This document shows, piece by piece, positions 15,529 through 54,527 of a stretch of DNA of 61,869 nucleotides. The translations under genes were made by a program, and so were the position numbers. Each line of letters opens with the position of its first letter. The stretch's first letter is position 1. Under the pieces are notes generated by a model. It had not been told where the DNA came from. It searched no databases and saw nothing but the letters and a program-made list of their open reading frames with translations. The stretch is from NCBI GenBank assembly GCA_013151235.1, contig JAADIO010000006.1, positions 1 to 61,869 of the forward strand, written 5' to 3'. The DNA comes from Deltaproteobacteria bacterium (GTDB lineage Bacteria > CG2-30-53-67).

Positions 15529-16747
15529 TTCACAAAGCCCGTTCCAGGGTCTGGTCAAACACGGGATTCTGGATGCGAAAACCCTGGCCGAGGCACTCGG
15601 GGTCGCCGAACGTCATGGCCTGCCGCCGGCCGAGATCCTTCTACGGGAGTACGACCTTCCCCGCGCAGCGCTCCAGCAGGCCCTTGCCGATCATTACCAC
15701 TGCGGGGTCCTTGAATACGATGAACGGCTGCCGATTCCCCCCGAGCTCCTGTCCGGGCTGGAGACTGAAAAACTGCGGGAGGAAGGATGGTTTCCGGTCA
15801 TCAAAAAGGCCGACGGTACGGTAGTCGTCGCTTGCACGAATCCCGCCGACCCCGCCCTTCCAGCAGAGGTGCAGGAAATCCTCGGAACCGGGCCATTTGA
15901 ATTCAAGGTCTGCCTCCCGGACGACATCCGATGGTTCACTGAAGACTTTCTCCATGCAAAACCGGGCAAACTGGTGGGTACGGAGCGAACCGGCCTGGCC
16001 TATTGGCGTAATAACATGGCCCAGTGGCGGACTGCTCTCGCCTGCTACAGGACGGACATGGCCCGTGCCCGCACCGCCCTGGCGATCATGCGTGCCGGAC
16101 TGGGACTGATCACCATTTCCTTTGCTCTCACCCGGGCACACTACCTCGCACTCCCCGAAGCAGCGACGATTCTTATTCTGGTCCTGGGTTGCGTCCTGGC
16201 CGTCGGCGCCGTACTCCCTTATCTCGAAGTCCGCCGCAGCCGCCTCCGTCCCCCCGGCGACACGACGCTGGTCGAGGTCACCGCCACGGAAGTAAGCTTT
16301 CTGAAGAACTATCTCAACCCGGAGAAATCCCCCGTCAAAGCACCGCACCGGGAGAAAATGCTGGCCCGGATCAGTGACCGGCTTCTGGAGTACTGCACCC
16401 TGCTCTATCCGCCCCCCGGAAGTCTGGAGCGGACACACCTTGCTCGGGAGCGAAACGTTCTGGCCGCCCAACGGACCATCGCCGCCTGCAACCGGACCAT
16501 ATACGCCCGGGCACGAACCGGGTTGGCATTCATCCGGACCGGGATCTCCTTCATCAGCATCGGGATCGGTTTAATCAAATACTTCGGCCCCGGCAGAAAC
16601 ACGATCTTTGACGCCCTGCTCATCCTGATCGGCCTTCTGCTGACGATCGACGGTGCCCGCTGGTATCGTCCGGCACACCGGTCGCAAACCGTTTTCTCGG
16701 AACTCGGCAGCCGATTCCGTCTCGAAAATTTTGTCAGCCGGTCATAG
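15515..16747 (+). CDS. Membrane protein: degenerate MshEN/GspE-N domain plus two DUF202-like repeats (paralog of the upstream gene)
   Basis: GLVKHGIL...LAEAL...EILL, KLREEGWFP...VACTNP. Repeats ERTGLAYWRNNMAQWRTALACYRTDMARARTALAIMRAG and ERTHLARERNVLAAQRTIAACNRTIYARARTGLAFIRTG. The start overlaps the previous gene. Confidence 0.75.
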   Translation: MIHTNSQSPFQGLVKHGILDAKTLAEALGVAERHGLPPAEILLREYDLPRAALQQALADHYHCGVLEYDERLPIPPELLSGLETEKLREEGWFPVIKKADGTVVVACTNPADPALPAEVQEILGTGPFEFKVCLPDDIRWFTEDFLHAKPGKLVGTERTGLAYWRNNMAQWRTALACYRTDMARARTALAIMRAGLGLITISFALTRAHYLALPEAATILILVLGCVLAVGAVLPYLEVRRSRLRPPGDTTLVEVTATEVSFLKNYLNPEKSPVKAPHREKMLARISDRLLEYCTLLYPPPGSLERTHLARERNVLAAQRTIAACNRTIYARARTGLAFIRTGISFISIGIGLIKYFGPGRNTIFDALLILIGLLLTIDGARWYRPAHRSQTVFSELGSRFRLENFVSRS

Positions 16748-35390: not shown

Positions 35391-37430
35391 ATGGACTCCG
35401 GCAAGCATCTACACCGAGGCTCAAACCTTTCCGATCTTCAAAATCGTCTTTACGCCGAACAGGTAGAACAGATTGAGAAGGTCTTTCCCCTCGGACTGCT
35501 GGCAACCCTGATCAACGCCACGGTTCTCGTAGTTCTTTTCTGGGAAGTGACGTCCCACATCCGGTTACCTGTCTGGTTTTTCATGATTCTGGTCCTGACG
35601 ATCCTGCGGCACCCGAAGATCTATCAGAAACACCCGCTCCTGTCGGGGCCCTCTTCCCTCCTCTTCCGCGGCAGAATTCTAATGATCGGCGCCGGACTCT
35701 CCGGGATCCTCTGGGGGTCCACGGCGATCTTTCTCTTCCCGGAAAACTCTCTGGTACACCAGACCTTTCTCGCCTTCATTCTGGGCGGCATGGTCGCGGG
35801 TGCAGCAGGGGCCTATTCCGTCCTGATGCCGGTATTCTTCTCTTTCAGTTTCCCGGCCCTGGTCCCCTTGATCATCCGGTTTTTTATTCTCGGCGGGAAA
35901 TTCCATTTCTCCATGGGGGGAGTGCTCTTACTCTTTGCACTGATCATGTGGGGAACGGCGAAACGATACAATCAAACTTCCACGAACAATTTTGCCCTTC
36001 GTCTCCGGAACAGCGATCTCGTCACGGTCCTTGCGGAATCGAAGGACCGGGCGGAAAAGTTCAACGAGGAACTGCAACAGGAAATTCAGACGCGAAAAGT
36101 TGCGGAAGAGGAACTGAAAAAACAGGAAGAACAACTGGCCGACCTGGTGGAAGAGCGCACAGCAGAACTGGTTGAGGCTCACCGGGAACTACAAAAGGAA
36201 TTTGACGAACGGAAACGGTTGGAACTGGAACTGATCAAATCAGCCAAACTGGAATCCCTCGGTGTGCTTGCGGGCGGCATTGCACACGATTTCAATAACC
36301 TTCTGACGGGGATTCAGGGGAACATCTCTCTGGCGACTCTCGACGCAGTTCCCGGCAGTCCGCAGGAATCGACGCTGAAGGAGGCGGACAAGGCCTGCAC
36401 ACGGGCCACGTCTCTGACCCATCAATTGCTGACCTTCTCCAAAGGAGGAAACCCGGTCAAGACCACTCTCCACATCAACGAAATCATCACGGAAACGGCC
36501 GGATTCGTCCTGCGGGGCTCCAACGTGAAGTGTGTCTATCATCTGCCCGAGGATCTCTGGAATGTGGAAGCCGATGAAGGGCAGATCGGGCAGGTCATCC
36601 AGAACCTGGTGATTAACGCCGATCATGCCATGCCGAAGGGAGGGACCCTGAACGTCCGGGGGGAAAACATCCATCTCGACCAGGAGAACCCAAACGGTCT
36701 GCCGGAAGGAAACTATATCCGGATCACCTTCCGGGATGAGGGATGTGGAATCGACGGGGAGGATCTATCCCGGATCTTCGATCCCTACTTTACGACCCGG
36801 GAAGGGGGAAATGGTCTCGGCCTCAGCTCCGCCTATTCAATTCTACAGAAACATGGCGGCAGCATCACCGTGAGATCCGAACCCGGAAAAGGCGCAACCT
36901 TTGCGATCCTGCTGCCGGCTTCCATGAAGAAGGAGCTTCCAACCCAGCCGGAACGAGGGAGTTTGTCCGTCGGTTCGGGACGGATACTGGTCATGGATGA
37001 CGAAGAACTCATCCGCAAAACCTTAAGCCGGATGCTGGAAAAACTTGGATATAAAACGGACGGCGTCGGCAATGGAACGGAAGCTCTCGAATCCTACCGG
37101 AAGGCCCTGCAGGAGGGGAACCCCTACCGTGCCGTCATCATGGACCTCACCATCCCCGGCGGCATGGGCGGCAAGGAGGCCGTCCGGAAACTGCTCAAGA
37201 TCGATCCCGGAGCAAAGGTCATCGTCTCCAGTGGTTATTCACAGGATGAGATCCTCGCAGAGTATCGTCGTTACGGTTTCTCCGGGATCATGACGAAGCC
37301 TTATGAGACCCGGAAACTGTCCGGAGTGCTCGAAAGGGTTCTGCAGGACTCCTCCGCTCCGGTCACCGCCGAACCTGAAGATCATCATCGTCAGTCGCAG
37401 TCTTTCCCGGATGATCCGTATCAGTCATGA
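35391..37430 (+). CDS. Hybrid membrane sensor histidine kinase / receiver
   Basis: Five to six TM helices, LAGGIAHDFNNLL, NLVINA, GNGLGLS and a C-terminal receiver (MDLTIPG). Confidence 0.93.
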   Translation: MDSGKHLHRGSNLSDLQNRLYAEQVEQIEKVFPLGLLATLINATVLVVLFWEVTSHIRLPVWFFMILVLTILRHPKIYQKHPLLSGPSSLLFRGRILMIGAGLSGILWGSTAIFLFPENSLVHQTFLAFILGGMVAGAAGAYSVLMPVFFSFSFPALVPLIIRFFILGGKFHFSMGGVLLLFALIMWGTAKRYNQTSTNNFALRLRNSDLVTVLAESKDRAEKFNEELQQEIQTRKVAEEELKKQEEQLADLVEERTAELVEAHRELQKEFDERKRLELELIKSAKLESLGVLAGGIAHDFNNLLTGIQGNISLATLDAVPGSPQESTLKEADKACTRATSLTHQLLTFSKGGNPVKTTLHINEIITETAGFVLRGSNVKCVYHLPEDLWNVEADEGQIGQVIQNLVINADHAMPKGGTLNVRGENIHLDQENPNGLPEGNYIRITFRDEGCGIDGEDLSRIFDPYFTTREGGNGLGLSSAYSILQKHGGSITVRSEPGKGATFAILLPASMKKELPTQPERGSLSVGSGRILVMDDEELIRKTLSRMLEKLGYKTDGVGNGTEALESYRKALQEGNPYRAVIMDLTIPGGMGGKEAVRKLLKIDPGAKVIVSSGYSQDEILAEYRRYGFSGIMTKPYETRKLSGVLERVLQDSSAPVTAEPEDHHRQSQSFPDDPYQS

Positions 37431-37486
37431 TTGCCCCCCCCGGCTTTTCATCGGGACTCAGCCGATCAATCCCCTGGATCAAGGAA

Positions 37487-38839
37487 TCATCGGTACAACT
37501 CGGATTTCTTCGAGGCGGAAACCCGGGACGGATCGGAAAAATATTCCCGAGTACTTCGGGCAATCACGGGGCTGAGCAGGATCAGTCCCACCAGGTTGGG
37601 CCAGGCCATCAGGGCATTGCCGATATCGGAGATGGTCCAGACCAGTTCAAGCCGGACATAAGCGCCGACGGGAAGGAGAATGCAGTAAAGGACACGATAC
37701 GGCATGACGAACTTTTCGCCGAAGAGATAATCGACACAGCGGTCTCCGTAATAGGACCAGCTGATGGCCGTGGAGAAGGCGAAGAAGACGAGACCGGTTG
37801 CAACAATATAACCACCGGAACCGCCCATTCCGAGTGTAAATGCCTTTGCCGTCAAATCGGCGCCGGTCAATCCCTCTTTGTATGCGCCCGTGAGAATGAT
37901 CACCAGTCCCGTCATGGTGCAAATGACCAGGGTGTCGATAAAGGGGCCGAGCATAGCAACCAGCCCTTCCCGCACCGGCTCCCTTGTTCGGGCGGCCCCG
38001 TGGGCGATGGGCGCACTCCCCAGCCCCGCTTCGTTGGAAAAAACCCCGCGGGCGACACCGAAACGGATCGCCTGAGCCACGGCGGCACCGGCAAACCCGC
38101 CCGTGGCGGCCGTACCGGTGAAGGCTCCGGAGAAGATCTCGGCCAGGGCGGCGGGGATTCCGCCGAGATGGCGGAAGATTACAATGAGAGCACCCAGAAC
38201 ATAAAAGATCGACATGAAAGGTACCAGTCGTCCGGCGACCCGTCCGATCCGTCGAATGCCGCCGACGATCACCGCAAAGACCAACCCGCCGATGATAAGC
38301 CCCGTGACAATCTTGGGAATATGGAAGTAGGTATGAACCGGCTCCGCCACGGAATTGGCCTGGACCATGTTCCCGATCCCGAAAGAGGCGATCGTCGCGA
38401 AGAGAGCAAAGAGGATCCCCAGCCACTTCTGTCCGAGGCCCCGTTCCAGGTAGTACATGGGGCCGGCGCCGACGGTCCCGTCTTCATGGATCACCCGGTA
38501 TCGCAGCGAAAGGAGACATTCCCCGTATTTGAGCCCCATACCGAAAAGGGCCGTGATCCACATCCAGAAAATCGCCCCCGGACCGCCGAGGGCCACGGCC
38601 GTTCCGACACCGGCGATGTTGCCGGTCCCGATCGTGGCGGAAAGGGCGGCGCTCAAAGCCTGAAAATGGGTAATCTCCCCCTCATCTTCAGGATTATCAA
38701 ACTTCCCCGAGATGAGCTGACAGGCGTAGATAAATTTCCGTGTCTGAATACCCCGGACAAGGAGTGTGATAAAAATACCCGTTCCGACCAGAAGAATGAT
38801 GGTAACCGGTCCCCAGACAATCCCGCTCAACCTGGACAA
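37487..38839 (-). CDS. Alanine/glycine:cation symporter (AgcS/AlsT)
   Basis: ALSATIGTGNIAGV, GGPGAIFWMW, GVARGVFSNEAGLGS and FIDTLVICTMT. Start uncertain (TTG 38839 lacks an RBS). Confidence 0.93.
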   Translation of the reverse strand: MSRLSGIVWGPVTIILLVGTGIFITLLVRGIQTRKFIYACQLISGKFDNPEDEGEITHFQALSAALSATIGTGNIAGVGTAVALGGPGAIFWMWITALFGMGLKYGECLLSLRYRVIHEDGTVGAGPMYYLERGLGQKWLGILFALFATIASFGIGNMVQANSVAEPVHTYFHIPKIVTGLIIGGLVFAVIVGGIRRIGRVAGRLVPFMSIFYVLGALIVIFRHLGGIPAALAEIFSGAFTGTAATGGFAGAAVAQAIRFGVARGVFSNEAGLGSAPIAHGAARTREPVREGLVAMLGPFIDTLVICTMTGLVIILTGAYKEGLTGADLTAKAFTLGMGGSGGYIVATGLVFFAFSTAISWSYYGDRCVDYLFGEKFVMPYRVLYCILLPVGAYVRLELVWTISDIGNALMAWPNLVGLILLSPVIARSTREYFSDPSRVSASKKSELYR

Positions 38840-38888
38840 AAATGAATATGAAAAGATAAGACGTCTCCCTGCAATAACTTCCGATCCA

Positions 38889-39368: not shown

Positions 39369-39583
39369 GACGGTCCCTCCTTTTCCTTCGCTTTTCCCTC
39401 TACCCGGACCCGGCAGGCCTGCTCATAAAAACGGTAAGGTACTGAGGGAGTACTCTACATGATTTTTCGGTGAATGAAAAGGGTGAATGGCAGGTGTGCG
39501 GATCGGGAAAATACGATTGTCATTTTTGATTTTTTTCCTAAAGTATTCCCGATTCCCGCCGATAAGGGGTTCAAATGCTCCTG

Positions 39584-39668
39584 GAGAAAGGCAAACTATC
39601 CGAAAGGGTAGGACGCAAAGCCACCTGCCGTAAGCTAAGGAAGACACGGTCGAGGGGTTGCCCGAAAG
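39584..39668 (+). promoter_or_regulatory. Cyclic di-GMP-I (GEMM) riboswitch
   Basis: AAAGGCAAACTATCCGAAAGGGTAGGACGCAAAGCC...TAAG...GGTCGAGGGGTTGCCCGA matches the GEMM pattern GGCAAAC-stem-GAAA-stem-GGACGCAAAGCC. Candidate promoter TTGTCA (39517)-N16-TAAAGT upstream. Confidence 0.93.
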
Positions 39669-39690: not shown

Positions 39691-39725
39691 AAAGCGTCCA
39701 CACCTTCGGGTTGGACGCTTTTTTT
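39691..39725 (+). terminator. Rho-independent terminator (riboswitch expression platform)
   Basis: aaagcgtcca-caccttcgggt-tggacgcttt followed by a T-tract. Confidence 0.85.
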
Positions 39726-39920
39726 GTTGTCCTCCCGAGAGATGCCGTCACGAAGGGCTCGCTTGAGCCTGACGGCATCTCTCCCTCCTCATTTCTTCAG
39801 AACCAACAATTCAGACCTAATGACGAACAAATAAGATCAGGATCAGGATTCCATGATGCAGCATCGGAGGATTCGGACGGGGCGAATGAGGAAAACTACG
39901 ATGATCAGGAAAAAAATTGC

Positions 39921-41273
39921 TTATTCCGAAAGGGGGTGTTGACCCATCTTGCCGAGAATCTTTGCCGCCTCTACGACGACCCGGTTGTCATTATCCTTCA
40001 GGGCTTTCATCAGGAGAGGGTGCAGACGAGCCTGATCGCTCACACTGTGGAGAGAAAGGACGGTCCGGAGACGAACATCGGGATCCTGATCATCCAGAGA
40101 GCGGAGGATGGAATCGAGATCATCGGCGAGCGGCCCCTGATCCAGAAGGCCGAAGAAATTCATCCCGTCGATCTCACTCAGATCAAGAGAAGGTCGGGCC
40201 TGGCGAACCTTCTCCGCCAACCCTTGCCCTTCGATAGAGGCCTGCGAAAGGAGGTTGACCACCCGGTCGGGGAAATTCATCTTCCCGATCATGCTGGAAA
40301 GCCGTGTCGGTCGCCCCTCTTCGAGTTCATAAATCCCGTTGTAGATAGCTGCACCCTTCGTCATCGTCTTGATGGAACTGTTCAGCTTTTCAAACATCTC
40401 CGCCGAACTGGCCTGGAGTACACTCCGGGGTGCGTAGAGGATTACGGCGATGACCGCTGCCGTCGTATAATCATAACCGGCCGCAAACAGGTCGCCCCCC
40501 TTCCAGATCTCTTTCAGCTGTTCCATCAGAAATCCGTCGCTGATCGGACCGGAGAGATTGAAGCTCCTGGAGCCGTAGATCATCAATCCCCGGGAAGAGA
40601 AGACCTTCCGAAAATCCTCACTGTCGAAACTCCGGAGACTCCGGATCTTGTAGGCATGGTCGGCACAGTTGAATTCGTCAAAGTTTTTAACGATTCGTTC
40701 GTTCGCCCGGGTGTAGTAATCGGCGATACTCACGCCGGGGAAAAGATCGAGAATCTTCTGATTGTCGATGAGGATGACACTGTTCAGGTTCTGCCGAAGA
40801 AGGGTATTGACCGCCTGGATGGCATTGACCTTGGTCAAGCTGCTTTCGCTCTCCGACGGCAGAGTCACCATCACGGAAGTCGGCACATTCAGCGGACGGA
40901 GGATCTCCGCCAGAGTCGGCAGGTTACTTCCCGTCCCGCCGCCCATCCCGGCAACAAGGATAAAAAGATCGACCGACTCCGCAGGCCCCTTCAAGGTACT
41001 CAGGATCCGGTCCCGGTTGCTAAGCAGGCTCTCCTTGCCAAGATCCAGGTCCCGGCCGGCACCGCTGCGCCCGTTGAGACCGACATGGAGACGGTGTTCC
41101 CGCGGCACTTCCTCCAGACTTTTCAGATCGGAAAAGGAGGTATTCAGGGCACAGGCCTGATACCCTTTCCGGGCAAACTCGGCGGCCAGGTTCCCGCCGC
41201 ACTGCCCGAGTCCCACCACCCCGATCTTCAACCGTTTTCTGAAATCATGAATCTTTGTATCGGAAGGTTTCAT
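39921..41273 (-). CDS. Divergent tubulin/FtsZ-superfamily GTPase with C-terminal HEAT repeat(s)
   Basis: GVVGLGQCGGNLA (T1), GAGRDLDLG (T3), AGMGGGTGS (T4 signature), VTLP, LIDNQKI, SFDSEDFRKV (T7-like); C-terminal DQDPDVRL...KDNDNRVVVEAAKILGK. Start at ATG 41273; the ORF extends to 41297. Confidence 0.88.
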   Translation of the reverse strand: MKPSDTKIHDFRKRLKIGVVGLGQCGGNLAAEFARKGYQACALNTSFSDLKSLEEVPREHRLHVGLNGRSGAGRDLDLGKESLLSNRDRILSTLKGPAESVDLFILVAGMGGGTGSNLPTLAEILRPLNVPTSVMVTLPSESESSLTKVNAIQAVNTLLRQNLNSVILIDNQKILDLFPGVSIADYYTRANERIVKNFDEFNCADHAYKIRSLRSFDSEDFRKVFSSRGLMIYGSRSFNLSGPISDGFLMEQLKEIWKGGDLFAAGYDYTTAAVIAVILYAPRSVLQASSAEMFEKLNSSIKTMTKGAAIYNGIYELEEGRPTRLSSMIGKMNFPDRVVNLLSQASIEGQGLAEKVRQARPSLDLSEIDGMNFFGLLDQGPLADDLDSILRSLDDQDPDVRLRTVLSLHSVSDQARLHPLLMKALKDNDNRVVVEAAKILGKMGQHPLSE

Positions 41274-41582
41274 GCCGCCGCCCCACCCTTCTGCCAATAA
41301 TGAATTTTTCGTAATCCTATCAAATCATCAAGAACTTTGTCAAGAAAAGCCGCCCTTTTCCCAGTTCCTTGTTGAAATGCTCCACATTCCCACGCGGGTT
41401 GTGCCATTGCAACAGAACCCATCGCAAAAAGATGATAAGCCTATTGGATGGATCCCTCAAATCCGTACCTCCCAAAGCCGGCAAATGAAAATTTCCGGAA
41501 AAATATGTAATACAATTGACATATTCTAATTCTGTGATATTGTGAATGCCGTTAATCTCACATTGAAATGAAGGAGGAGATC

Positions 41583-42374
41583 ATGAAAAACAAAGTCAAA
41601 GGACTGTTGATTCTTGTCCTGTTTTTGTGTTGCGCTTCACTGGCCTTTGCCGAAACTTATGGTGTCAAGAAGCGGGCGCCCCGCCCGGAGGAATACGGTA
41701 ACTGCATAATCAACAACTTCTCCGAACAGAACAAGATGGCTCCGGTCGTCTTCAAACACTGGTTGCATCGGGCGAAGTATACCTGTCGTCTTTGTCATGT
41801 TGATCTTGGCTTCGCCATGCAGACAGGGGGAACCGGAATCCGGGAAAAAGATATCCGCAGGGGCCTTTACTGCGGCGTGTGCCACAATGGAAAGATCGCC
41901 TTTCGCTGGGAAGAGCGAACACCTTTCGGGAAACTGCAGAAGAACTGCGATCGATGTCACTCCTATGGAAAAGATGTAAAGTTCAAGTACGATTTTTACA
42001 AATTCACCAAAGAATGGCCGAAGGCACGATTCGGAAACCGGGTCGACTGGCTGAAGGCGGAAGAGATGGGATTGATCAAGCTGCAGGATGCCATCAAAGG
42101 AGTCACCATCAAGCGTCGTCCCCTCAAAATTCCTCTCAACACCGAGATTGAAGCAAAGGTACCCGAGATGCCGGACATCATCTTTTCTCACAAGAAGCAT
42201 GCCGTCTGGAATGGCTGTGAACTCTGCCATCCCGATATCTTCGGAATCAAGAACGGAGCCACCAAATTCACCATGCAGGATATCTTTAACGGCAAATACT
42301 GTGGAGCCTGTCATGGGAAGGTCTCGTTCATGACCCTGGACTGCCAGCTTTGTCACTCAAAATCCATTAACTGA
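41583..42374 (+). CDS. Periplasmic hexaheme cytochrome c (two c7-type triheme domains)
   Basis: Signal peptide; CRLCH, CGVCH, CDRCH, CELCH, CGACH, CQLCH; F.H..H motifs. Confidence 0.9.
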   Translation: MKNKVKGLLILVLFLCCASLAFAETYGVKKRAPRPEEYGNCIINNFSEQNKMAPVVFKHWLHRAKYTCRLCHVDLGFAMQTGGTGIREKDIRRGLYCGVCHNGKIAFRWEERTPFGKLQKNCDRCHSYGKDVKFKYDFYKFTKEWPKARFGNRVDWLKAEEMGLIKLQDAIKGVTIKRRPLKIPLNTEIEAKVPEMPDIIFSHKKHAVWNGCELCHPDIFGIKNGATKFTMQDIFNGKYCGACHGKVSFMTLDCQLCHSKSIN

Positions 42375-42412
42375 ATTCTATTCCACTTCCTGACTTCCTA
42401 AAAGGAGGAGAG

Positions 42413-43168
42413 ATGCTTCGTCCCATGATCACCGCCTGGATCCTGGCACTGCTGATCTTCCCCGTTGCGGGATGGGCGGATTCTTTCTGGAATCTGCCCC
42501 CTCTTCCCCCACCGGAAGAATATGGGAATATTCTGATCAACCGAACCTCGGAGACACACGGGCTCAAAGCAGTTACCTTCTCTCACTGGTCTCATCGGAT
42601 AAGATACACCTGTCGGGTCTGTCATACTGAACTTGCCTTTGAGATGAAGGTCAATGCAACGGAGATTACGGAAAAAGCGAACCAGCACGGAAAATACTGC
42701 GGCGCCTGCCATAACGGCAAGACTGCATTTGGTCACACAAAAAAGAACTGCAACAAATGCCACAACGGTGACCGAAGTTACGGAAAAGAAAAATTCGCAA
42801 AGCTTGCCAAATTCCCCAGAGCCAAATTCGGTAACAAGATCAACTGGGATAAAGCCGTCAACGAGAAGCTGATCAACCCCAAGCTGACGATCTGGAAGCA
42901 AGCCTACACGCCCCTTCCCTACAACAAACTCCTCAAGCTGGAAGCAAAGTGGAACATCATCCCCGATGCTTTCTTTTCCCACGAGATACACAATCGATGG
43001 CTTGACTGCTCCAACTGCCATCCCGACCCCTTTAATATCAGGGAGAAAACAACCCGGCACTTCTCCATGAAGGCAATCCTGGACGGAAGGTTCTGCGGTG
43101 TTTGCCACCGCAGAGTCTCTTTCCCGATGGATGATTGCAACCGGTGCCATCCCGGCATCAAGAAATGA
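42413..43168 (+). CDS. Periplasmic hexaheme cytochrome c, paralog of the upstream gene
   Basis: PEEYGNILIN, FSHWSHR; CRVCH, CGACH, CNKCH, CSNCH, CGVCH, CNRCH. Confidence 0.9.
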   Translation: MLRPMITAWILALLIFPVAGWADSFWNLPPLPPPEEYGNILINRTSETHGLKAVTFSHWSHRIRYTCRVCHTELAFEMKVNATEITEKANQHGKYCGACHNGKTAFGHTKKNCNKCHNGDRSYGKEKFAKLAKFPRAKFGNKINWDKAVNEKLINPKLTIWKQAYTPLPYNKLLKLEAKWNIIPDAFFSHEIHNRWLDCSNCHPDPFNIREKTTRHFSMKAILDGRFCGVCHRRVSFPMDDCNRCHPGIKK

Positions 43169-43491
43169 GGTGGACCGTGCGAAAAAGCATCCTTTTGCTC
43201 CTTCTACTTTTTCTTTCACTTTCTCTCGTGATCGGGGTCCCGGCGGAAACGTGGAAATCGGAATTTGAAAAGATCTGTGCAAACGTTCCCACCGCATCGT
43301 CCCTTTCGACGGAACGAATCCGGCAACTAATCAAAGAGAGCAACCAACTGACAAAAACGGTTGAAGCGGTTCAGGATCCGCAGAAGAAAGTCTATCTCTT
43401 CCGCCTTAAAAAATGCAGGAACTTCTTTCAGTTCATCCTGAACGGCCGGACCGACAGGAACCCGGATGGTGCGAAAGCCCCACCGAAGTGA
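43165..43491 (+). CDS. Small exported helical protein with two Cys
   Basis: ATGA overlap with the cytochrome stop; signal peptide; WKSEFEKIC...KVYLFRLKKCRNFF. Confidence 0.7.
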   Translation: MRWTVRKSILLLLLLFLSLSLVIGVPAETWKSEFEKICANVPTASSLSTERIRQLIKESNQLTKTVEAVQDPQKKVYLFRLKKCRNFFQFILNGRTDRNPDGAKAPPK

Positions 43492-43682
43492 GAAAGCCCC
43501 TTTCCTTTGTTCGTCTTTCTCTGCGACCTCTGCGTCTGAGGTGAACGTTCTTCTCCTTTGACCTTCCCCCCTCCCCCCCTTTTCCGCGAAAGGGGGGCAC
43601 AAAGCTCGGGAAGCTTCGATCGATCTTCACCCTCGCCCCAACTCGTTGACTTTTTTCATATTTTTCGATATAAACAGTACTT

Positions 43683-45623
43683 ATGGATTCCCAAAGGACC
43701 TTTCCCCATCTGAATATCCGGAGGAAGCTGATCGTTGCATTCCTCGGTATCGGGTTGATCCCGGTACTGATCCTTGGAAGCATCAACCTCCTGACCAACA
43801 CGCAGGCACTGAAACATCGGACAATCACGGAAATCCACGCCACTCTGACGGCGAAGGCAGAGCGAATCCGGAATGCCCTTCGACATGCCGGAAAGGATCT
43901 GCGTCTCCTCAGTCACTCCCCCTCCCTGAACACATTCCTGGAATTCTACCCGGGGAACGTCATGGGGAAGAACAACCTGAACCGGATGCTCTACAACACC
44001 CTCAAAGATTTTGCACGGAAAAACCCGATCTATCACAGCATTCAGCTTTTCAACCTGAAGGGAAAACCGATCGTTAGCGTCACCAATGACGGAAAAACCA
44101 TTCGGGCGGAAGGACCGGGTAAGACAGCCCCCGCCGGCGATACGGCTTTTTTCTGGAAAGCACTGGATCGGGATCAGGACCGGTTCGTTGTCACCCGGTC
44201 CATGACACCCGATGCAGGAGTCAAAAAAGAAAAACCGGCTCTCGTATTTTCAACGGCGATTCATGATCAGGGCCGACGCGTCAAAGGGGTTCTGGCCATC
44301 CAGCTTCTTTTGCGGGATCTGGCAAACCGGGCCCGGTCTGCTGAAAAACCGATGGGAAGTACTTATCTGATGGACCGGGAGGAAACCTTCCTGCTCCGCG
44401 TCGATAGCAGTAATGCCGAACCGGTGCGGGGAGGTTTTCCCGGTACACTGAAAAGAGAAACACTCCAGCGGATTCTCTCCGGCCGGGAGGGATTGATTAC
44501 GAACGAGAAGAACCGGATCATTTCTTACATTCCCATCCAGGTGGGTGTCGACAGTCCTGCCGATGACTGGGTCCTCGCCGTCGATGTGGCCGAACCGGTG
44601 GTTTTGGCACCGGTACACCGATTTCTTTTTCTCTCCTTGATCATGGTTATTCTCCTGACCTTAATCGGGGTCATCCTCGGTGTAACGGCATCGAACCAGT
44701 TGACCCGGCCGATTCTGGAACTTCACCAGGGAGCACAGCGACTGGCAACGGGCGATTTTTCCCATCGGATTAACGTCAACAGTAATGACGAAATCGAAGA
44801 ACTCGCTGAACAGTTCAATCGGATGGCGGAACGACTTCAGATCTCCCGGGAGCAGATGCAACGATCGAATGAGGAACTGCAGGCGGAGGTCCGGAAAAGA
44901 ACGGAACAACTGGTTCAGGCGGAAAAGATGGCTGCACTGGGGAGACTTTCTGCCGGCATCGCCCATGAAATCGGGAATCCCCTGGCCGGGATGAAAGCCA
45001 ACATTCAACTCCTGGTTGAAAAATTCGGTTCCGACAGTTCCCATCACAAATTCCTGGAACGGATCCTGCGGGAGATCAACCGGCTGGACCACTTTCTGCA
45101 AACCTTCTCCTCCTTTGCCCGGCCGGCAAAAGCACAGAGGACCGCCTGTGACATCCGGAAGATGATCCAGGATGTCATTTTCTTCGTTCGACCGGAAGGC
45201 GCAAAGCAGGGAGTGAAAATCCGGCAGATCTTCGACGAAGATCTGCCGAAGGTCATGGTCGATCATCAGCGGATGCAGCAGGTCTTCCTCAATCTTTGTC
45301 TGAATGCCTTGCAGGCGATGCCGGAAGGAGGCAAACTTACGATTCGAGCTTACGGAGGGAAAGAATTTCCGGAATCCACCGATACGGTCCAGGAGATCAT
45401 CGTCGATGTCTCCGACTCCGGAACCGGGATCCCGGCGGAACACCTCCCGAAGATCTTCGACCCCTTCTTTACAACCAAGGCACAAGGGACCGGCCTCGGC
45501 CTTTCCATCGTCCATCAAATTGTGCGCGAAAACAACGGGACGATTGAGGCGGTTTCGAACGATGATACAGGAACCACCTTTCGTATTCGACTGAAAGGGG
45601 CTGCGCAATCCATCCTTTCCTGA
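43683..45623 (+). CDS. Sensor histidine kinase (TM-Cache-TM-HAMP-HisKA-HATPase)
   Basis: [14 protein letters not shown] (HAMP), [11 protein letters not shown] and GTGLGL. Confidence 0.94.
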
Positions 45624-45632
45624 GGAGGGAAG

Positions 45633-46991
45633 ATGCCGAATCTGCTGATTGTGGAAGATGATGAATCGATGCTCGACACCCTGAGTGACGTTTTCCGGGA
45701 AAAGGGAGAAAATGTTGTCTCCGTCCCAACGGGTGACGCAGCCCTGAAGGAGTTCAGCCGGAATCAACCGGATCTGGTCCTTCTCGATATCCGTCTGCCG
45801 GACACGGACGGGCTGACACTACTGAAAAAAATGAAGGAAACAGCTCCGGACCTTCTCGTCGTGATCATGACCGCCTATCCCCAGGTACAAACCGCCATCC
45901 AGGCGATGAAGGCCGGTGCCTACGATTATATCAACAAGCCCTTTGATCTCGACGAGATGCGTCTCGTTGTGGAGAAGGCCCTGGAAACGCGCCTCCTCAA
46001 GGATGAAGTCAACCGGTTCCGAAGAGAAAAGGCCTCCACGGCAAAGGCGACGAAAATCCTAGGGGAGAGTCCCGCCACGCAACAGATGCGGACACTGCTT
46101 CGAATGGTCGCCGATACGCCGCGGACCCCGGTCCTGTTGACGGGCGAATCGGGAACCGGGAAGGAACTGGCCGCCAACGCCATTCACTATGGGAGTCACC
46201 GGGCGCAGAAAGCGCTGGTGAAGGTCAACTGCAGTGCTCTGCCCGACAACCTGCTGGAGGACGAGCTTTTCGGACACGAACGGGGGGCCTTCACCGATGC
46301 GAAAGAGACCCGGAAGGGGCTGTTTGAAATGGCAGACGGCGGGAGTCTGTTCCTGGATGAAATTGCTGAAATGTCCCCTGCCCTGCAGCCGAAACTCCTG
46401 CGAATCCTGGAAGGAGAGCCGTTTCGACGTGTGGGCGGAACTCGGGAGATCCGGTCGGACGTCCGTATTATCGCAGCCACCAATCGTGATCTTACAACCA
46501 TGGTCAAGGCCGGAAGCTTCCGCAAGGACCTTTATTATCGGCTCAAAGTCATGGAGATGCGGTTACCGACGTTAAAACAAAGGAGAGAGGATATCCCCCT
46601 GCTTGTAGAGCATTTCATTGCACTTCACAGCCGGGAGATGGGAAAGTCGGCGGTTACTCTGAGCGACCAGGCCGCACAAATGCTGATGAACTACTCCTGG
46701 CCGGGCAACGTCCGGGAACTTAAAAATGTAATAGAACGAGCCGTGATCCTGTCGAACGGAGAGACCATCGAACGCAAACATCTCCCGCTGGAACTCTGCA
46801 AAGCCGTCGCAAACGAATGTTTCGAGAACAACCCTCCCGCAGCCCTGGATCTCACACTGGAAGACCTTGAACGGGAATACATCCTCCGGATACTGAGAAA
46901 GCTCGGGGGGAACCGGACCGCTGCAGCAAAAAAACTCGGGATTTCCCGGTCCACTCTTTTGGAAAGACTCAAACGTTATAATGCCCGATAG
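45633..46991 (+). CDS. Sigma54-dependent (NtrC-family) response regulator
   Basis: Receiver, GESGTGKE, GAFTDA, LFLDEI, WPGNVREL and a Fis-type HTH. Confidence 0.95.
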   Translation: MPNLLIVEDDESMLDTLSDVFREKGENVVSVPTGDAALKEFSRNQPDLVLLDIRLPDTDGLTLLKKMKETAPDLLVVIMTAYPQVQTAIQAMKAGAYDYINKPFDLDEMRLVVEKALETRLLKDEVNRFRREKASTAKATKILGESPATQQMRTLLRMVADTPRTPVLLTGESGTGKELAANAIHYGSHRAQKALVKVNCSALPDNLLEDELFGHERGAFTDAKETRKGLFEMADGGSLFLDEIAEMSPALQPKLLRILEGEPFRRVGGTREIRSDVRIIAATNRDLTTMVKAGSFRKDLYYRLKVMEMRLPTLKQRREDIPLLVEHFIALHSREMGKSAVTLSDQAAQMLMNYSWPGNVRELKNVIERAVILSNGETIERKHLPLELCKAVANECFENNPPAALDLTLEDLEREYILRILRKLGGNRTAAAKKLGISRSTLLERLKRYNAR

Positions 46992-47190
46992 TTTCCTCTT
47001 CATCTACCGTAAACAAGCGTTGTGCCGTTTCAGACCTCCTTCCTTTTTTATAATGCTGAATGATTTCCAGAGGTCGAATCCTTTTTTCGGAAATAAAATA
47101 AAAAAAAGTCTTGAAATTCAGAACTCATTTCCATATAGTCATATGATAATTTTAGAATTTACATACTTCATTAAAAGCATGGGAGGTACG

Positions 47191-47754
47191 ATGATCATTC
47201 AACAGAGAACCGTCTTTCTCCTCTTTTTGTGCTTCACCGGAGCGTTTCTGATTTCTCCATCAAGGTCTTTCAGCTCCGACATGGATTCGGAAGCAGCATT
47301 AGCGCAGTCCCCTCAGGTCCAGGAACATAAGATTCCCAAGTATATTACTCCGCCGCCCCCCTTCTCGGAGGGGATCTTCCCCTGCTCCGACTGCCATAAA
47401 GACTTAAAACCGAACCCCAAACGCCGCAAACTGGAACTCATGCACACCGATATTCACCTGAAACATGCGGGCGGAGAACAATGGTGCCTGGACTGTCATG
47501 ACCTGAACAATCGCGACAAGCTGCACCTGATCAATGGGAAACTGATCGATTTCGAGGAGGTCTATTATCTCTGTGGACAATGCCACGGGACGATCTTCCG
47601 GGACTGGAAGGCCGGCGTCCATGGAAAACGGACGGGAGAATGGAATGGGAAGAAGGTCTACCGTCTTTGTACCAACTGCCACAATCCCCATCAGCCTCAC
47701 TTCAAGCCGTTAAAACCAAAACGTCCACCGGAACGGCCGAGTGATATCAAATAA
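47191..47754 (+). CDS. Tetraheme cytochrome c (CbcS-like subunit of a cytochrome c/FeS/NrfD complex)
   Basis: GGAGG RBS, signal peptide; CSDCH, CLDCH, CGQCH, CTNCH. Confidence 0.88.
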   Translation: MIIQQRTVFLLFLCFTGAFLISPSRSFSSDMDSEAALAQSPQVQEHKIPKYITPPPPFSEGIFPCSDCHKDLKPNPKRRKLELMHTDIHLKHAGGEQWCLDCHDLNNRDKLHLINGKLIDFEEVYYLCGQCHGTIFRDWKAGVHGKRTGEWNGKKVYRLCTNCHNPHQPHFKPLKPKRPPERPSDIK

Positions 47755-47788
47755 ACTTTTCTACTACTTGAAAATCCGGGAGATCGAT

Positions 47789-48712
47789 ATGTCTAAAAAA
47801 CAGAGAAAAAATCCGTTATCGCTCAAACTTGACCGGCGCAATTTCCTGAAAGGCTCGGCCCTCGGATTGGCTGCATCGGCCCTGCCCCTGGAGAATGCCG
47901 ATGCCTCTTTTATTGAAGCTTTTTTTCAGAAACACTTCCGGGAGATGAACAAGAAGGAAATCCAGGAGGTTCTGAACCGGTTGGAAAAGGAGTATTCCGA
48001 ACAATACAAAAAACACGTCACGGTGAAGGCAACGAAAGCCATGCCGGGCGTCCAATTCGGATACGGCCTTGATTTATCCAGATGCATCGGCTGCCGCCGT
48101 TGTGTTTACGCCTGTATCGGGGAAAACAACCAGTCCCGTGACCCACAAATTCCATGGATCCAGGTCCTGAGCTTCAGGAAGGGCGACAAATGGACGGATC
48201 TGGAAGAAGCGGACAAGTATTACAATCCTGCCACGGTCCCGGAACCGGAGCACTGGTACATGCCGGTACAGTGCCAGCAGTGCCGCCATCCTGCCTGTAC
48301 CCGGGCCTGCCCCACCCAGGCGACCTGGAAAGAACCGGATGGAATCGTCGTTGTTGATTACAACTGGTGCATCGGCTGCCGCTACTGTATGGCGGCCTGC
48401 CCCTACGGCGCTCGTCATTTCAACTGGGGAGAGCCTCACATTCCGGACGATGAGCTGAATCCGGTCACCCATTACCTGGGTAATCGTCCCCGGTACAAGG
48501 GGGTTGTGGAAAAATGCACCTTCTGTATTCAACGAACCCGTGAAGGCAGGTATCCTGCTTGCGTGGAGATCTGCCCCGTTGGTGCACGAAAATTTGGAAA
48601 TCTCCTCGATCCGTCCAGTGAGATTCGATACTGCATTGAGAACAAGCGGGTCTTTCGTCTCAAGGAAGAACTGAATACACAACCGAAGTTCTATTACTTC
48701 TACGCAACGTAA
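47789..48712 (+). CDS. Tat-exported 4Fe-4S subunit (NrfC/DsrO/CbcT-like)
   Basis: LDRRNFLK; CIGCRRCVYAC, CQQCRHPACTRACP, CIGCRYCMAACPY, KCTFC...ACVEICP. Confidence 0.92.
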   Translation: MSKKQRKNPLSLKLDRRNFLKGSALGLAASALPLENADASFIEAFFQKHFREMNKKEIQEVLNRLEKEYSEQYKKHVTVKATKAMPGVQFGYGLDLSRCIGCRRCVYACIGENNQSRDPQIPWIQVLSFRKGDKWTDLEEADKYYNPATVPEPEHWYMPVQCQQCRHPACTRACPTQATWKEPDGIVVVDYNWCIGCRYCMAACPYGARHFNWGEPHIPDDELNPVTHYLGNRPRYKGVVEKCTFCIQRTREGRYPACVEICPVGARKFGNLLDPSSEIRYCIENKRVFRLKEELNTQPKFYYFYAT

Positions 48713-48731
48713 TATCGATAGGGGAGAAAAG

Positions 48732-49997
48732 ATGATTGAGATGATACGGAACTTTTTCAAGGCGATGAAGCAGATTCTGATCGGTGATCGGAACTACTAT
48801 CTATGGATTGCATTCCTGAGTTTCTTCGTGATTGCAGGGATGGCCGCCTATGCAGAGCAGATTCATGACGGTCTGATTGTCACCGCAATGCGGGATCCTG
48901 TCTCCTGGGGGTTGTACATCTCCAATTTTACATACCTCGTCGGAGTGGCGGCCGCCGCCGTTGTACTCGTCGTCCCCGCGTACATCTACAACTTCAAGGC
49001 CATCAAGGAAATTACCCTCCTGGGCGAGATGCTGGCCGTCACGGCGGTCATTCTCTGCATTCTCTTCGTTATGGTCGACATGGGACATCCGGAACGGCTC
49101 TGGCATCTTCTTCCCTTCGTGGGGGCCATGAACTTTCCCAGCTCCCTCCTGGCTTGGGATGTCATCGTTCTATCCGGCTATCTCTTCATCAATGCGACGA
49201 TTGTCCTGTATGTTCTGTACAAGCTTTCTCTCGGAAAAGAATATAACCTTCAATTCATCAAACCGTTGATCATTCTCTCTATTCCCTGGGCGGTCGGGAT
49301 CCACACCGTCACCGCATTTCTCTACAACGGTCTTCCCTCTCGCCCCTTCTGGAATGCCTCAATCCTGGCTCCGCGCTTTCTCGCCTCGGCCTTCTGCTCC
49401 GGTCCGGCCCTGATGCTGATTCTTTTTCAGATCATCCGCAAGGTCTCACGCATTGAAGTCAAGGATAAAGCCATTTTCAAAATTGCCGAACTGATCGCCT
49501 ATGCCATGTGCATTAATCTCTTTCTCGAAATTGCGGAACTCTTCAAGGAGTTTTACTCCGGGACCGTAGACGTTGCTTCGATTCAGTATCTCTATTTCGG
49601 TTTAAAAGGAAACAACGGGCTTGTTCCATGGATCTGGTGGGCAACCATTCTGAATGTCATCGCATTGATTCTATTCTTGAATCCGAAAACCCGGGAAAAT
49701 ATGCTGACACTCAACGCAGGATGCGTTTTCATCATCATCGGGATTTATATTGAGAAGGGGATGGGACTTGTCATCCCGGGATTTGTCCCCGGAACCTTAG
49801 GGGAAATATATAACTACTCCCCAACCCACATAGAAATTCTCATTACCGTAGGCATCTGGGCCTTCGGTGCTCTCCTCTATACATTGATGTTGAAATTTGC
49901 GATCCCGATCTATACGGGCCAGTTGCGTTTCAGCTCTACAAAAAAAACCGATGGCGAAAAGACCTCTTCAGTTGACCTGGAACCAATAGCAGAGTAG
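48732..49997 (+). CDS. NrfD/PsrC-family quinol-interacting membrane subunit (DsrP/CbcU-like)
   Basis: VSWGLYISNFTYLVGVAA, DMGHPERLWH and IHTVTAFL; about 10 TM helices. Confidence 0.92.
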   Translation: MIEMIRNFFKAMKQILIGDRNYYLWIAFLSFFVIAGMAAYAEQIHDGLIVTAMRDPVSWGLYISNFTYLVGVAAAAVVLVVPAYIYNFKAIKEITLLGEMLAVTAVILCILFVMVDMGHPERLWHLLPFVGAMNFPSSLLAWDVIVLSGYLFINATIVLYVLYKLSLGKEYNLQFIKPLIILSIPWAVGIHTVTAFLYNGLPSRPFWNASILAPRFLASAFCSGPALMLILFQIIRKVSRIEVKDKAIFKIAELIAYAMCINLFLEIAELFKEFYSGTVDVASIQYLYFGLKGNNGLVPWIWWATILNVIALILFLNPKTRENMLTLNAGCVFIIIGIYIEKGMGLVIPGFVPGTLGEIYNYSPTHIEILITVGIWAFGALLYTLMLKFAIPIYTGQLRFSSTKKTDGEKTSSVDLEPIAE

Positions 49998-53768: not shown

Positions 53769-53810
53769 TCCGGGCACAAAAGTCTCTTCAAGATATTGAT
53801 TGGGGAACCC

Positions 53811-54527
53811 ATGAAAAAAAAGAGCAAAAAACTGATCCATGAGGATCTCGAACTTCTCCGAACCCCGGGCAGGAAGGAACGGCCCGACTTTACCGCCAAA
53901 GATCCCTGGCGGGCCCTCCGGATTCTGGGAGAAGTCGTGGAAGGGTTCGACTCTCTTCACGACATCCACGGTTCCGTCTCCTTTTTCGGTTCAGCGCGAA
54001 CCCCGGAGAAAGACCCCTACTATCAGGCAGCTCGGGAGACAGCCCGGCTCATGGCGGAAAACGGATTTCCGATTATTACCGGGGGCGGTCCCGGAATCAT
54101 GGAAGCGGCCAACCGGGGCGCCCAGGAAGGAAAAGGGGTTTCCGTGGGATGCAACATCCAGCTTCCCTTCGAGCAAACGGCGAACCCCTACCAGGATATT
54201 ACTCTTGACTTCCGTTACTTCTTCGTCCGGAAGCTGATGTTCATCAAGTACTCCACCGCCTTTGTCATCTTTCCCGGCGGTTTTGGAACCCTGGATGAAC
54301 TTTTCGAAGCCCTCACCCTCGTCCAGACCGACAAAATCGAGCAATTTCCCATCGTCCTCTACAACGATGACTACTGGGAGTCCATGATCCGGTTCTTTCA
54401 CGACAAACTCCTGAAGGAAGAAAACATCTCCGGAAAGGATATGACTCTCATCAAGGTATGCAATTCCCCGCAGGAGATTGTGGATCACGTCGTCGAATAT
54501 TGCATGAAAAACCATACCTCCAGCTGA
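53811..54527 (+). CDS. LOG-family (TIGR00730-type) nucleotide monophosphate nucleosidase
   Basis: FGSAR, TGGGPGIMEAAN, YFFVRKLMF and PGGFGTLDELFE. Confidence 0.93.
   Translation: MKKKSKKLIHEDLELLRTPGRKERPDFTAKDPWRALRILGEVVEGFDSLHDIHGSVSFFGSARTPEKDPYYQAARETARLMAENGFPIITGGGPGIMEAANRGAQEGKGVSVGCNIQLPFEQTANPYQDITLDFRYFFVRKLMFIKYSTAFVIFPGGFGTLDELFEALTLVQTDKIEQFPIVLYNDDYWESMIRFFHDKLLKEENISGKDMTLIKVCNSPQEIVDHVVEYCMKNHTSS

Follow-up and report, generated by a model that had tools for sequence, protein, structure and literature searches.

The question raised by a gene on the reverse strand of contig JAADIO010000006.1, from an organism named Deltaproteobacteria bacterium (GenBank assembly GCA_013151235.1; GTDB lineage CG2-30-53-67), is which kind of tubulin-family protein it encodes and what such a protein may do in a cell that also carries a canonical FtsZ. 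The gene, coding for 450 amino acids, lies at positions 39921..41273 (− strand, stop codon included) of a stretch of 61,869 nucleotides that was analysed as a whole and is referred to below as the window. Only a few bacterial homologues of tubulin have known roles: FtsZ acts in cell division, TubZ and PhuZ position plasmid and phage DNA, and to these is added BtubA/B. An earlier note, made from the letters of the window, had described the product as a stand-alone, chromosomal, non-FtsZ tubulin-family GTPase carrying its own HEAT module, and the domain assignments and scores given below bear this out. Our reading, to which we attach a probability of about 0.6 and which draws on sequence comparison and structural modelling, is that the protein belongs to a distinct, chromosomal, TubZ-related clade of the tubulin/FtsZ superfamily and would form filaments in a GTP-dependent manner.

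The open reading frame (ORF) itself extends over 39921..41297 (− strand) and would yield 458 amino acids if translation began at the TTG at 41297, which is in frame and adds eight residues, while the ATG at 41273 gives the 450-residue form. The coordinates 39921..41273 of the earlier note are right, because the 450-residue form is the one found in the protein database (P0002) and the N-termini of the relatives align at that position.

The GTPase core and its relatives

Pfam searches assigned domains along the whole protein. The tubulin/FtsZ GTPase domain (PF00091; 40743..41228, coordinates checked by translation) scored 76 bits against a cut-off of 33 and covers residues 24–185 of the 458-residue form. 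It is followed by the TubZ-like C-terminal, or activation, domain (PF22453; 40251..40634, also seen in the structural model), at 34.2 bits against 26 (residues 222–349 of the same form), and finally by HEAT_2, at 31.1 bits against 27.7 (residues 398–453), and HEAT, at 26.8 bits against 23.5. The T1 (GLGQCGGN, 41190..41213), T4 (GMGGGTGSN, 40923..40949) and T7 (SFDSEDFRK, 40605..40631) loops, to which the earlier note had drawn attention, are all present at their translated coordinates and, with residues of T5 and T6, are invariant or nearly so among 34 aligned relatives, whose identity falls as low as 35%. Within T7, residues D217, E219 and D220 (450-residue numbering) are invariant, and BLASTP aligned SFDSEDFRKV with NVDFADVRAI, the T7 loop of the FtsZ encoded in the same genome.

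An AlphaFold model of the protein has a mean predicted local distance difference test (pLDDT) value of 84.3 and a predicted template modelling score of 0.73. Its core, residues 12–357, lies mostly above a pLDDT of 85, shows the two-domain fold of GTPase domain, H7 helix and activation domain, and closes with a long helix at 336–357. A fold search of the PDB gave at least 500 matches at E ≤0.001, led by CetZ, TubZ and FtsZ; the best were CetZ1 (4b46), Bacillus cereus TubZ (4ei7; TM score 0.69, root-mean-square deviation 2.8 Å) and CetZ2 (4b45), with FtsZ close behind. As judged from its sequence and model, therefore, the gene encodes an intact tubulin/FtsZ-superfamily GTPase with a full activation domain.

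By sequence, the 450-residue protein is not the division protein FtsZ of the cell, since it scores 87.6 bits with the NCBIfam ftsZ equivalog model TIGR00065, for which the cut-off is 295.2, and a canonical ftsA-ftsZ pair is present on another contig. The separate ftsZ, whose presence in the genome (2.62 Mb, 99% complete) the earlier note had suggested confirming, is located on contig C36, scores 428.3 bits with the same model, encodes both Tubulin and FtsZ_C domains and has ftsA directly upstream. No match to FtsZ_C (PF12327) was found by Pfam in the 450-residue protein, and its tail, when aligned with those of relatives, is devoid of an FtsZ-type C-terminal peptide. The gene also lies outside any dcw cluster, as had been claimed, with symporter and cytochrome genes for neighbours, and no dcw context was detected around the relatives' loci. 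Canonical FtsZ proteins scoring above the cut-off occurred in all four carrier genomes tested, which belong to four phylum-level groups and include the present genome; the other three, from Fibrobacteria, Latescibacterota and a metagenome-assembled Nitrospirota genome, each also carry one copy of the family below the cut-off. What the protein shares with FtsZ is the superfamily, the aligned T7 loop and the logic of its layout, in which a core is followed by a variable linker and a docking element.

The extent of the family depends on how far one searches. A word-seeded search yielded 41 proteins at E ≤3e-68 and then, after a gap, FtsZ-like proteins at 6e-16. When 1.84 billion representatives were searched exhaustively with a profile, 389 clusters were obtained at E ≤1e-30 and 13,891 at ≤1e-3; at the level of sequence, the family merges gradually with a far larger group of proteins. 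Compared with solved structures, the family profile matched B. cereus TubZ/RepX (4ei7) best, at 2.5e-37 and over the whole core, followed by CetZ2 (3.3e-28), CetZ1 (4.8e-26), the best FtsZ (4.2e-25) and B. thuringiensis TubZ (2.9e-16). With a profile of the core, members of the clade scored more than 260 bits and the next ring of representatives 170–245; below these came four plasmid TubZ proteins (103–151), gp138 of phage G (145), haloarchaeal CetZ-like proteins (91–112) and FtsZ (63–85). PhuZ of phage phiKZ gave no match to the core profile of the clade and formed a very long branch in the larger of the two trees.

That tree, constructed with FastTree from 71 rows, placed the protein within a clade of 32 rows with an SH-like support of 99. 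A quick IQ-TREE run (LG+C20 with posterior mean site frequencies) on the 43 rows that remained once PhuZ, a single long-branched plasmid TubZ and another 26 rows had been dropped, recovered the 19 clade rows as one group with a support of 99 in the Shimodaira–Hasegawa-like approximate likelihood ratio test (SH-aLRT), while the FtsZ and the haloarchaeal CetZ-like groups were each supported at 100. In the same run the clade fell inside a wider TubZ-like assemblage (88), beside representatives with extended N-termini (90). The label CetZ-like for the haloarchaeal outgroup is our own, the database records reading "tubulin/FtsZ family protein". The plasmid TubZ rows were long-branched and scattered over more than one group, so that the trees do not resolve a sister relationship to TubZ. 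Phylogeny had been proposed in the earlier note as a check on the identity of the protein, and it places it outside FtsZ (support 99–100 in the two trees) and outside the CetZ-like group (100), in a clade of its own (99). Taken together, the analyses of family profile, fold and trees assign the protein to a separate clade that is well supported, is nested in a broad TubZ-like assemblage and, at the sequence level, stands apart from FtsZ, from the haloarchaeal CetZ-like proteins and from the plasmid TubZ proteins sampled.

Among characterised proteins the closest likeness is to TubZ/RepX of Bacillus plasmids and phages (PDB 4ei7, 2xka, 3j4s), which provides the best profile match, a near-best fold match and the TubZ-like C-terminal domain. 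The identity to a Planococcus plasmid TubZ is 28% over 399 amino acids and, as in TubZ, the core ends in a long helix that is followed by a tail. Unlike TubZ, the protein is encoded on a chromosome with no TubR-like gene upstream, branches in its own clade and carries a conserved motif after the core together with a HEAT cap. CetZ, which is involved in archaeal cell shape (4b45, 4b46, 3zid), accounts for the top fold matches, and CetZ2 (4b45) is the best single-sequence match over the whole core (2e-17); moreover, the T1 loop is of the GxGQxGG type seen in the haloarchaeal proteins. In contrast to CetZ, which lacks a HEAT cap, the protein is bacterial, and a support of 100 parts it from the haloarchaeal CetZ-like group. 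No match to Tubulin_C was found, and no tubulin or Btub chain was among the best 60 PDB sequence matches listed.

A resemblance to FtsZl1 and FtsZl2 (Pfam Tubulin_2), which were described by Makarova and Koonin in 2010 (PMC2875224), lies in their being bacterial, non-FtsZ and encoded outside division clusters. FtsZl1 is described there as a protein of about 1000 amino acids that contains a coiled coil but in which the T6-H7 region cannot be recognised, and FtsZl2 as proteobacterial with a C-terminal alpha/beta region of 300 amino acids, whereas the present protein has canonical T6, H7 and T7 elements and gave no match to Tubulin_2 (PF13809) at E values up to 1. In the section of a 2023 survey that we used (PMC9871819), the bacterial CetZ-like groups named are Chloroflexota and Firmicutes TubZ only, and a review of CetZ proteins treats archaea only in its corresponding part (PMC9856176). 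The view of the earlier note that the family is uncharacterised agrees with the full-text literature searched, in which we found no bacterial tubulin homologue with a HEAT cap described, supplements, which may list members of the clade, being set aside.

The C-terminal tail and its modules

The region beyond the core is poorly ordered in the AlphaFold model, with pLDDT values below 50 at residues 358–365 and 367–384, and it is here that a conserved sequence occurs. The motif LDLSEIDGMNFF (40152..40187), recognised by alignment, lies about 147 residues past T7 inside the disordered stretch and conforms to the consensus LDLxEIxxMxFF. The earlier note was correct in stating that there is no FtsZ C-terminal peptide, but it overlooked this motif. 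A strict pattern for it was found in 39 of the 41 close relatives, the two misses having failed the T7 pattern and gone unscored, and, among representatives at greater distance, in 11 of 146. A relaxed version, L(D/E)Lxx(I/V)xx(F/L/M)x(L/F)F, behind which a run of basic residues often comes, can be seen in most rows of the tail alignment. The motif is retained in members without HEAT repeats and in a fusion to a PilM domain described below.

It is followed in the window protein by a short acidic linker, GLLDQGPLADD (40119..40151), which is far longer in some relatives, and then by the terminal cap (39942..40118), assigned by Pfam and by the model, in which four helices at residues 386–444 make up two HEAT repeats of about 60 amino acids in all. 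The succession of an acidic linker and HEAT repeats is thus as first described. The same cannot be said of the analogy drawn with the HEAT-based, tubulin-binding TOG domains, which fails because the cap consists of only two repeats and about 60 amino acids. A TOG domain is a paddle of 220–250 amino acids made up of about six such repeats.

A profile of the cap located it 0–12 residues from the C-terminus in 30 of the 41 close relatives and in 33 of the 73 next-closest representatives, or 63 of 114 close representatives; it was detected in only two of 73 in the more distant set, both of which resemble fragments of clade members. The tail after the motif, comprising linker and cap, is about 75 residues long in the window protein and reaches about 360 in long relatives. 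In relatives from Fibrobacteria the cap is missing and a conserved peptide, SYSLE(D/E)YVKLKK, forms the C-terminus. Other domains occur in the tails of seven of the 70 representatives scanned: a Cds6_C NTF2-like domain in five (P0164, P0167, P0170, P0178 and P0179), and a PilM/FtsA-type domain (P0124), a ParA/MinD-type ATPase (P0176) and an HD_5 domain of HD-GYP-like type (P0184) in one each. Proteins with such fusions belong to the clade or lie near it. An N-terminal glycosyltransferase was seen in one of 66 more distant representatives (P0216). In Candidatus Schekmanbacteria an ORF of 850 amino acids (L026:5617-8169) joins the core and the tail motif to a PilM/FtsA-type domain. In this fusion and that of P0124 the actin-fold domain and the tubulin-like core are parts of one protein of 818–850 amino acids, and such a fusion is a possible "Rosetta stone" for the membrane anchor of the family. 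As a separate observation, four of the 66 more distant TubZ-like representatives (P0225, P0236, P0260 and P0265) carry inteins in the GTPase domain, some of them with LAGLIDADG endonucleases.

FtsZ is built as a globular core, a flexible and variable linker and a terminal docking element. The sequences indicate a comparable plan throughout the clade, in which the core leads into the post-core motif and a linker of variable length, and a folded module takes the terminal docking position that the C-terminal peptide occupies in FtsZ. The flexible tail may accordingly be pictured as working in the way of the FtsZ linker and C-terminal peptide, with the HEAT cap docking on a partner and so tethering the filament.

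Distribution, context and mode of action

A scan with one genome per species revealed at least 38 loci, all of them bacterial, and this number is a lower bound given the narrow search patterns. Twenty are from Fibrobacterota, seven from genomes labelled Nitrospirae or Nitrospirota, two from Latescibacterota and five from unclassified bacteria, with one each from Schekmanbacteria, Deltaproteobacteria, Polyangia and "Bifidobacteriales", the last probably mis-binned. In a protein atlas the nearest cluster is assigned most often to Myxococcota; for the unnamed representatives, the taxonomy is taken from a single line of that atlas and a few record titles. The GTDB phylum of the organism itself holds just 14 species genomes.

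The family is chromosomal. The earlier note saw no TubR, phage or plasmid genes adjacent to the gene, and none was found nearby in the window, where the only ORF in the TubR position is a small one of 50 amino acids. This ORF (41270-41422), which overlaps the start codon, was considered as a TubR stand-in and rejected, its best tblastn match at the loci of 13 relatives having an E value of 1.0; the DNA upstream of the tubulin-like gene is likewise not conserved among the relatives' loci. When viral contigs were scanned with the family alignment, 95 pattern matches were obtained and none was confirmed, and phage G provided a distant match only. Plasmids gave 53 matching records, all below 60% identity (23–34% among the matches listed), and these were solely distant Bacillales TubZ and haloarchaeal proteins. 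PADLOC assigned no defence family, the sole match being to HEAT-ARM at 13 bits (E 0.0027).

Neighbouring genes differ from lineage to lineage. In Fibrobacteria a suf operon lies upstream of the family gene and an acyl-CoA dehydrogenase gene downstream; at these loci (L011-L025, L029 and L037) the HEAT-less member directly follows the suf Fe-S operon (NifU, SufB, SufC, SufD, SufS and SufU) and precedes a long acyl-CoA dehydrogenase gene. In Latescibacterota pfkB, mtnA, lptE, rimP, nusA and infB are found downstream, and the long-tailed relatives from metagenomes have nothing in common except a large FGE-sulfatase/MopE protein at two loci. These neighbours were considered as functional partners and are read instead as lineage synteny.

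In the mechanism that we favour, subunits would stack head to tail such that the T7 loop, with D217 and D220, completes the GTPase site of the next subunit. Such stacking is proposed because FtsZ, TubZ and tubulin work in this way and because T7 is conserved; we know of no purpose for an invariant T7 other than completing the site of a neighbour. The filament would then serve as an accessory scaffold or positioning device and not as a division ring; the roles in shape, motility or positioning that the earlier note entertained are guesses. A predicted complex of two copies with two GTP molecules returned a score of 0.00 and a mark of 0.42, which speaks neither for nor against such stacking. The C-terminal tails of TubZ and PhuZ contact the neighbouring subunit and, by analogy, the acidic-hydrophobic post-core motif may do the same, for which we put the chances slightly below even. 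Somewhat less probable is the alternative, hinted at by the natural fusion, that the motif binds an FtsA/PilM-like anchor.

Several observations weigh against the proposal of a GTP-dependent filament from a separate TubZ-related clade. The trees are quick ones with long TubZ branches, and BtubA/B, eukaryotic tubulins and the named CetZ proteins of H. volcanii were left out of them. The post-core motif is disordered in the monomer model, which makes its role a guess. The distribution is patchy, with the gene present in eight of the 14 genomes of its own phylum (every member but one of one family, whereas the five genomes of the second family lack it) and in eight of 151 genomes sampled from the phylum to which the Fibrobacteria carrier G014 belongs; it is therefore dispensable for most relatives, which argues for an accessory role. 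Finally, among the loci compared no neighbouring gene is conserved across phyla, and no partner can be named.

Two alternatives appear to us about equally improbable. According to the first, the protein is a DNA-segregation motor of the TubZ type (type III partition) that now serves the chromosome or some unlinked element, with the HEAT cap or tail binding a DNA-bound adaptor encoded elsewhere. This would fit with B. cereus TubZ/RepX being the closest solved relative by family profile, with the above-threshold TubZ-like C-terminal domain, with the position of the clade inside the TubZ-like assemblage (SH-aLRT 88) and with the ParA/MinD-type ATPase fused to the relative P0176. Opposed to it is the absence of any conserved small gene upstream, whereas all four plasmid TubZ loci that were fetched have a gene of about 100 amino acids directly upstream, in the TubR position; the family genes moreover sit among housekeeping genes in several phyla, and the viral and plasmid scans yielded no confirmed member and nothing as close as 60% identity, respectively. 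According to the second, the protein does not polymerise but serves, as a monomer or dimer with a tubulin fold, as a GTPase switch or enzyme scaffold, and both the stand-alone gene and the diverse terminal fusions (HD, glycosyltransferase, NTF2) are what one would expect of a signalling module. Such a switch is hard to reconcile with the T7 loop (FDxEDF) being invariant across the clade and with the whole activation domain being kept. In known members of the superfamily T7 acts only in trans, across the longitudinal interface.

A second, specialised division or septation protein, working alongside FtsZ or replacing it under some conditions, is less probable still, for while the family coexists with FtsZ in four of four genomes and two relatives (L026 and P0124) are fused to a domain of the type of FtsA, the membrane anchor of FtsZ, the protein has no dcw context, no FtsZ_C domain or FtsZ C-terminal peptide, a position outside the FtsZ clade (support 100) and a patchy occurrence even within one family of genomes.

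The convergent riboswitch and the wider setting

The filament-forming reading leaves the question of regulation, on which the earlier note had suggested possible control by cyclic di-GMP (c-di-GMP). A c-di-GMP-I-GGC riboswitch aptamer (RF03167 variant) indeed exists at 39581..39666, with an Rfam score of 65.4 bits against a gathering score of 59, and is the only hit above threshold that Rfam gives across the window. The aptamer lies 255 nucleotides past the stop codon of the tubulin-like gene, on the + strand and pointing into the gene, and with this convergent orientation it cannot exert normal 5' leader control over it. The next real gene on the + strand starts at 41568, 1.9 kb further on, and the riboswitch is thus not in a co-directional 5' leader.

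Upstream of the aptamer a consensus scan reported a promoter-like site (39517..39544, +). Downstream, a hairpin GCGTCCA...TGGACGC followed by seven T residues (39694..39725, +) was read from the sequence and its predicted fold, the consensus scan having failed to report it; it is likely to be an intrinsic terminator or the expression platform of the riboswitch, and it also falls in the 3' region of the tubulin-like gene. A second conserved hairpin with a 13-bp stem (39737..39783, +) emerged from comparison of relatives and folding; in one relative its stem has changed in a compensatory manner (GCCGTC/GACGGC to GCCGCC/GGCGGC), and in a second the loop is different. A small ORF running across this hairpin was rejected on inspection by eye, the stems co-varying and the loop differing between relatives. 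This stretch of 226 nucleotides folds far better than its shuffled versions (z −6.35, none of 200 as good).

A + strand ORF of 529 amino acids (39711-41300) was also considered as the gene controlled by the riboswitch and dismissed as an artefact, being a codon-aligned antisense frame which is open because the tubulin-like gene contains no TTA, CTA or TCA codons. These make up 0.91% of 15,577 codons in the 36 other genes, so that their absence from 458 codons has a probability of about 0.016, and four of 37 genes contain none. Seven of eight close orthologues have two to six such codons (L010 has none), and the antisense frame is therefore not conserved. The same codon rarity generates further full-length antisense ORFs at 37427-38845 (+) and 42398-43297 (−), which would mislead a reader relying on ORFs.

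Orthologous copies of the riboswitch score 66.9–69.4 bits. The module occurs in four genomes of two genera, and the convergent layout is kept in three species of these two genera. In the two of these species other than that of the window, a SLOG (LDcluster4) gene, absent at the window locus, lies between the module and the tubulin-like gene. Within the same candidate phylum a SLOG cluster-4 gene of 150 amino acids stands directly downstream of the tubulin-like gene at L004:9444-9896, L007, L008:9430-9879, L047 and L048; the window has lost this gene, and a distant paralogue remains at 53796-54527.

It seems probable to us that the riboswitch has nothing to do with the gene and is a self-contained riboswitch-terminator unit sharing a terminator region with it, either as a small RNA or as a leader whose gene was lost or is far away. 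Besides its location on the opposite strand, this is favoured by the SLOG gene, and not the tubulin-like gene, adjoining the module in two relatives, and by the two weaker copies of the riboswitch in the genome, which are ordinary leaders of genes for a subtilase and a small multihaem cytochrome. A genome of the same genus (G007) adds a further point, one which also tells against our overall reading: it keeps the module, but the adjacent 397 nucleotides, extending to the contig end, contain neither SLOG nor tubulin-like coding sequence, and a functional link is thereby weakened. No tubulin-like gene was found anywhere in the G007 assembly. As proof that the gene is dispensable the case is weakened, the syntenic riboswitch being 398 nucleotides from the end of the contig. 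In the non-coding DNA up to that end (L148:1-400, on contig C201) there are two copies of a motif of about 25 nucleotides (…TTACGAG.(C/T)CATCAAAGAA…), possibly a repeat that broke the assembly.

Speaking for a connection are the convergent layout shared by three species of two genera and, from the portion of PMC9943018 considered here, the finding that, of all riboswitch classes, those for c-di-GMP show the strongest enrichment in antisense orientation (152 antisense against 2,554 sense, P 4.6e-62). Like the antisense-acting riboswitches treated in the same portion (the B12 riboswitch/AspocR of Listeria; PMC9943018), the element has its own terminator and lies less than 500 nucleotides from the 3' end of a gene on the opposite strand. 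It differs from them in that the SLOG gene is its immediate neighbour in relatives and that one relative keeps it with no tubulin-like gene beside it. A c-di-GMP input to the gene through read-through of the convergent transcript, acting in antisense or by overlap at the 3' end, is hence a tentative suggestion that we consider rather unlikely.

Other features of the window concern the gene less directly. A promoter-like site TTGACA-18-TAGGAT (41314..41343, −), a consensus match only, lies about 40 nucleotides upstream of the ATG. The downstream neighbours are genes for an Na:alanine symporter and for a protein of 159 amino acids without Pfam hits, and upstream a divergent set of genes begins. 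This run (41568-49997, +) opens with genes for two multihaem proteins of the cytochrome c7 type, a histidine kinase with Cache and HAMP domains and a sigma-54 response regulator, closes with those for another multihaem cytochrome, a 4Fe-4S protein with a TAT signal and a membrane subunit of the NrfD type, and looks like a regulated respiratory module. Elsewhere, two adjacent genes (13975-15528 and 15488-16747, +) encode proteins with DUF202 and MshEN domains, the latter of which we take to be a c-di-GMP-binding domain.

The interest of the family lies in its being chromosomal, present in several phyla and coexisting with FtsZ while conserving, as far as its sequences indicate, every residue needed for GTP-driven assembly. 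The natural fusions to PilM/FtsA, ParA/MinD, HD and NTF2 domains offer hypotheses on its partners. A more far-reaching view, which we regard as speculative and unlikely to hold in full, is that it represents a third multi-phylum bacterial cytoskeleton of the tubulin type, in which TubZ-related filaments on the FtsZ plan would carry swappable terminal modules (two-HEAT cap, short peptide, PilM/FtsA, ParA/MinD, NTF2 or HD) for cargoes or anchors, and whose level, in this candidate phylum, would be tuned by c-di-GMP through the antisense riboswitch. The convergent riboswitch may, in this respect, exemplify control by a second messenger through antisense transcription. If the protein does polymerise, it would constitute a new cytoskeletal system in poorly known lineages, namely the Nitrospirae-labelled candidate phylum, Nitrospirota, Fibrobacterota, Latescibacterota and probably Myxococcota, and it would provide a natural case of a folded module standing in place of the FtsZ C-terminal peptide.

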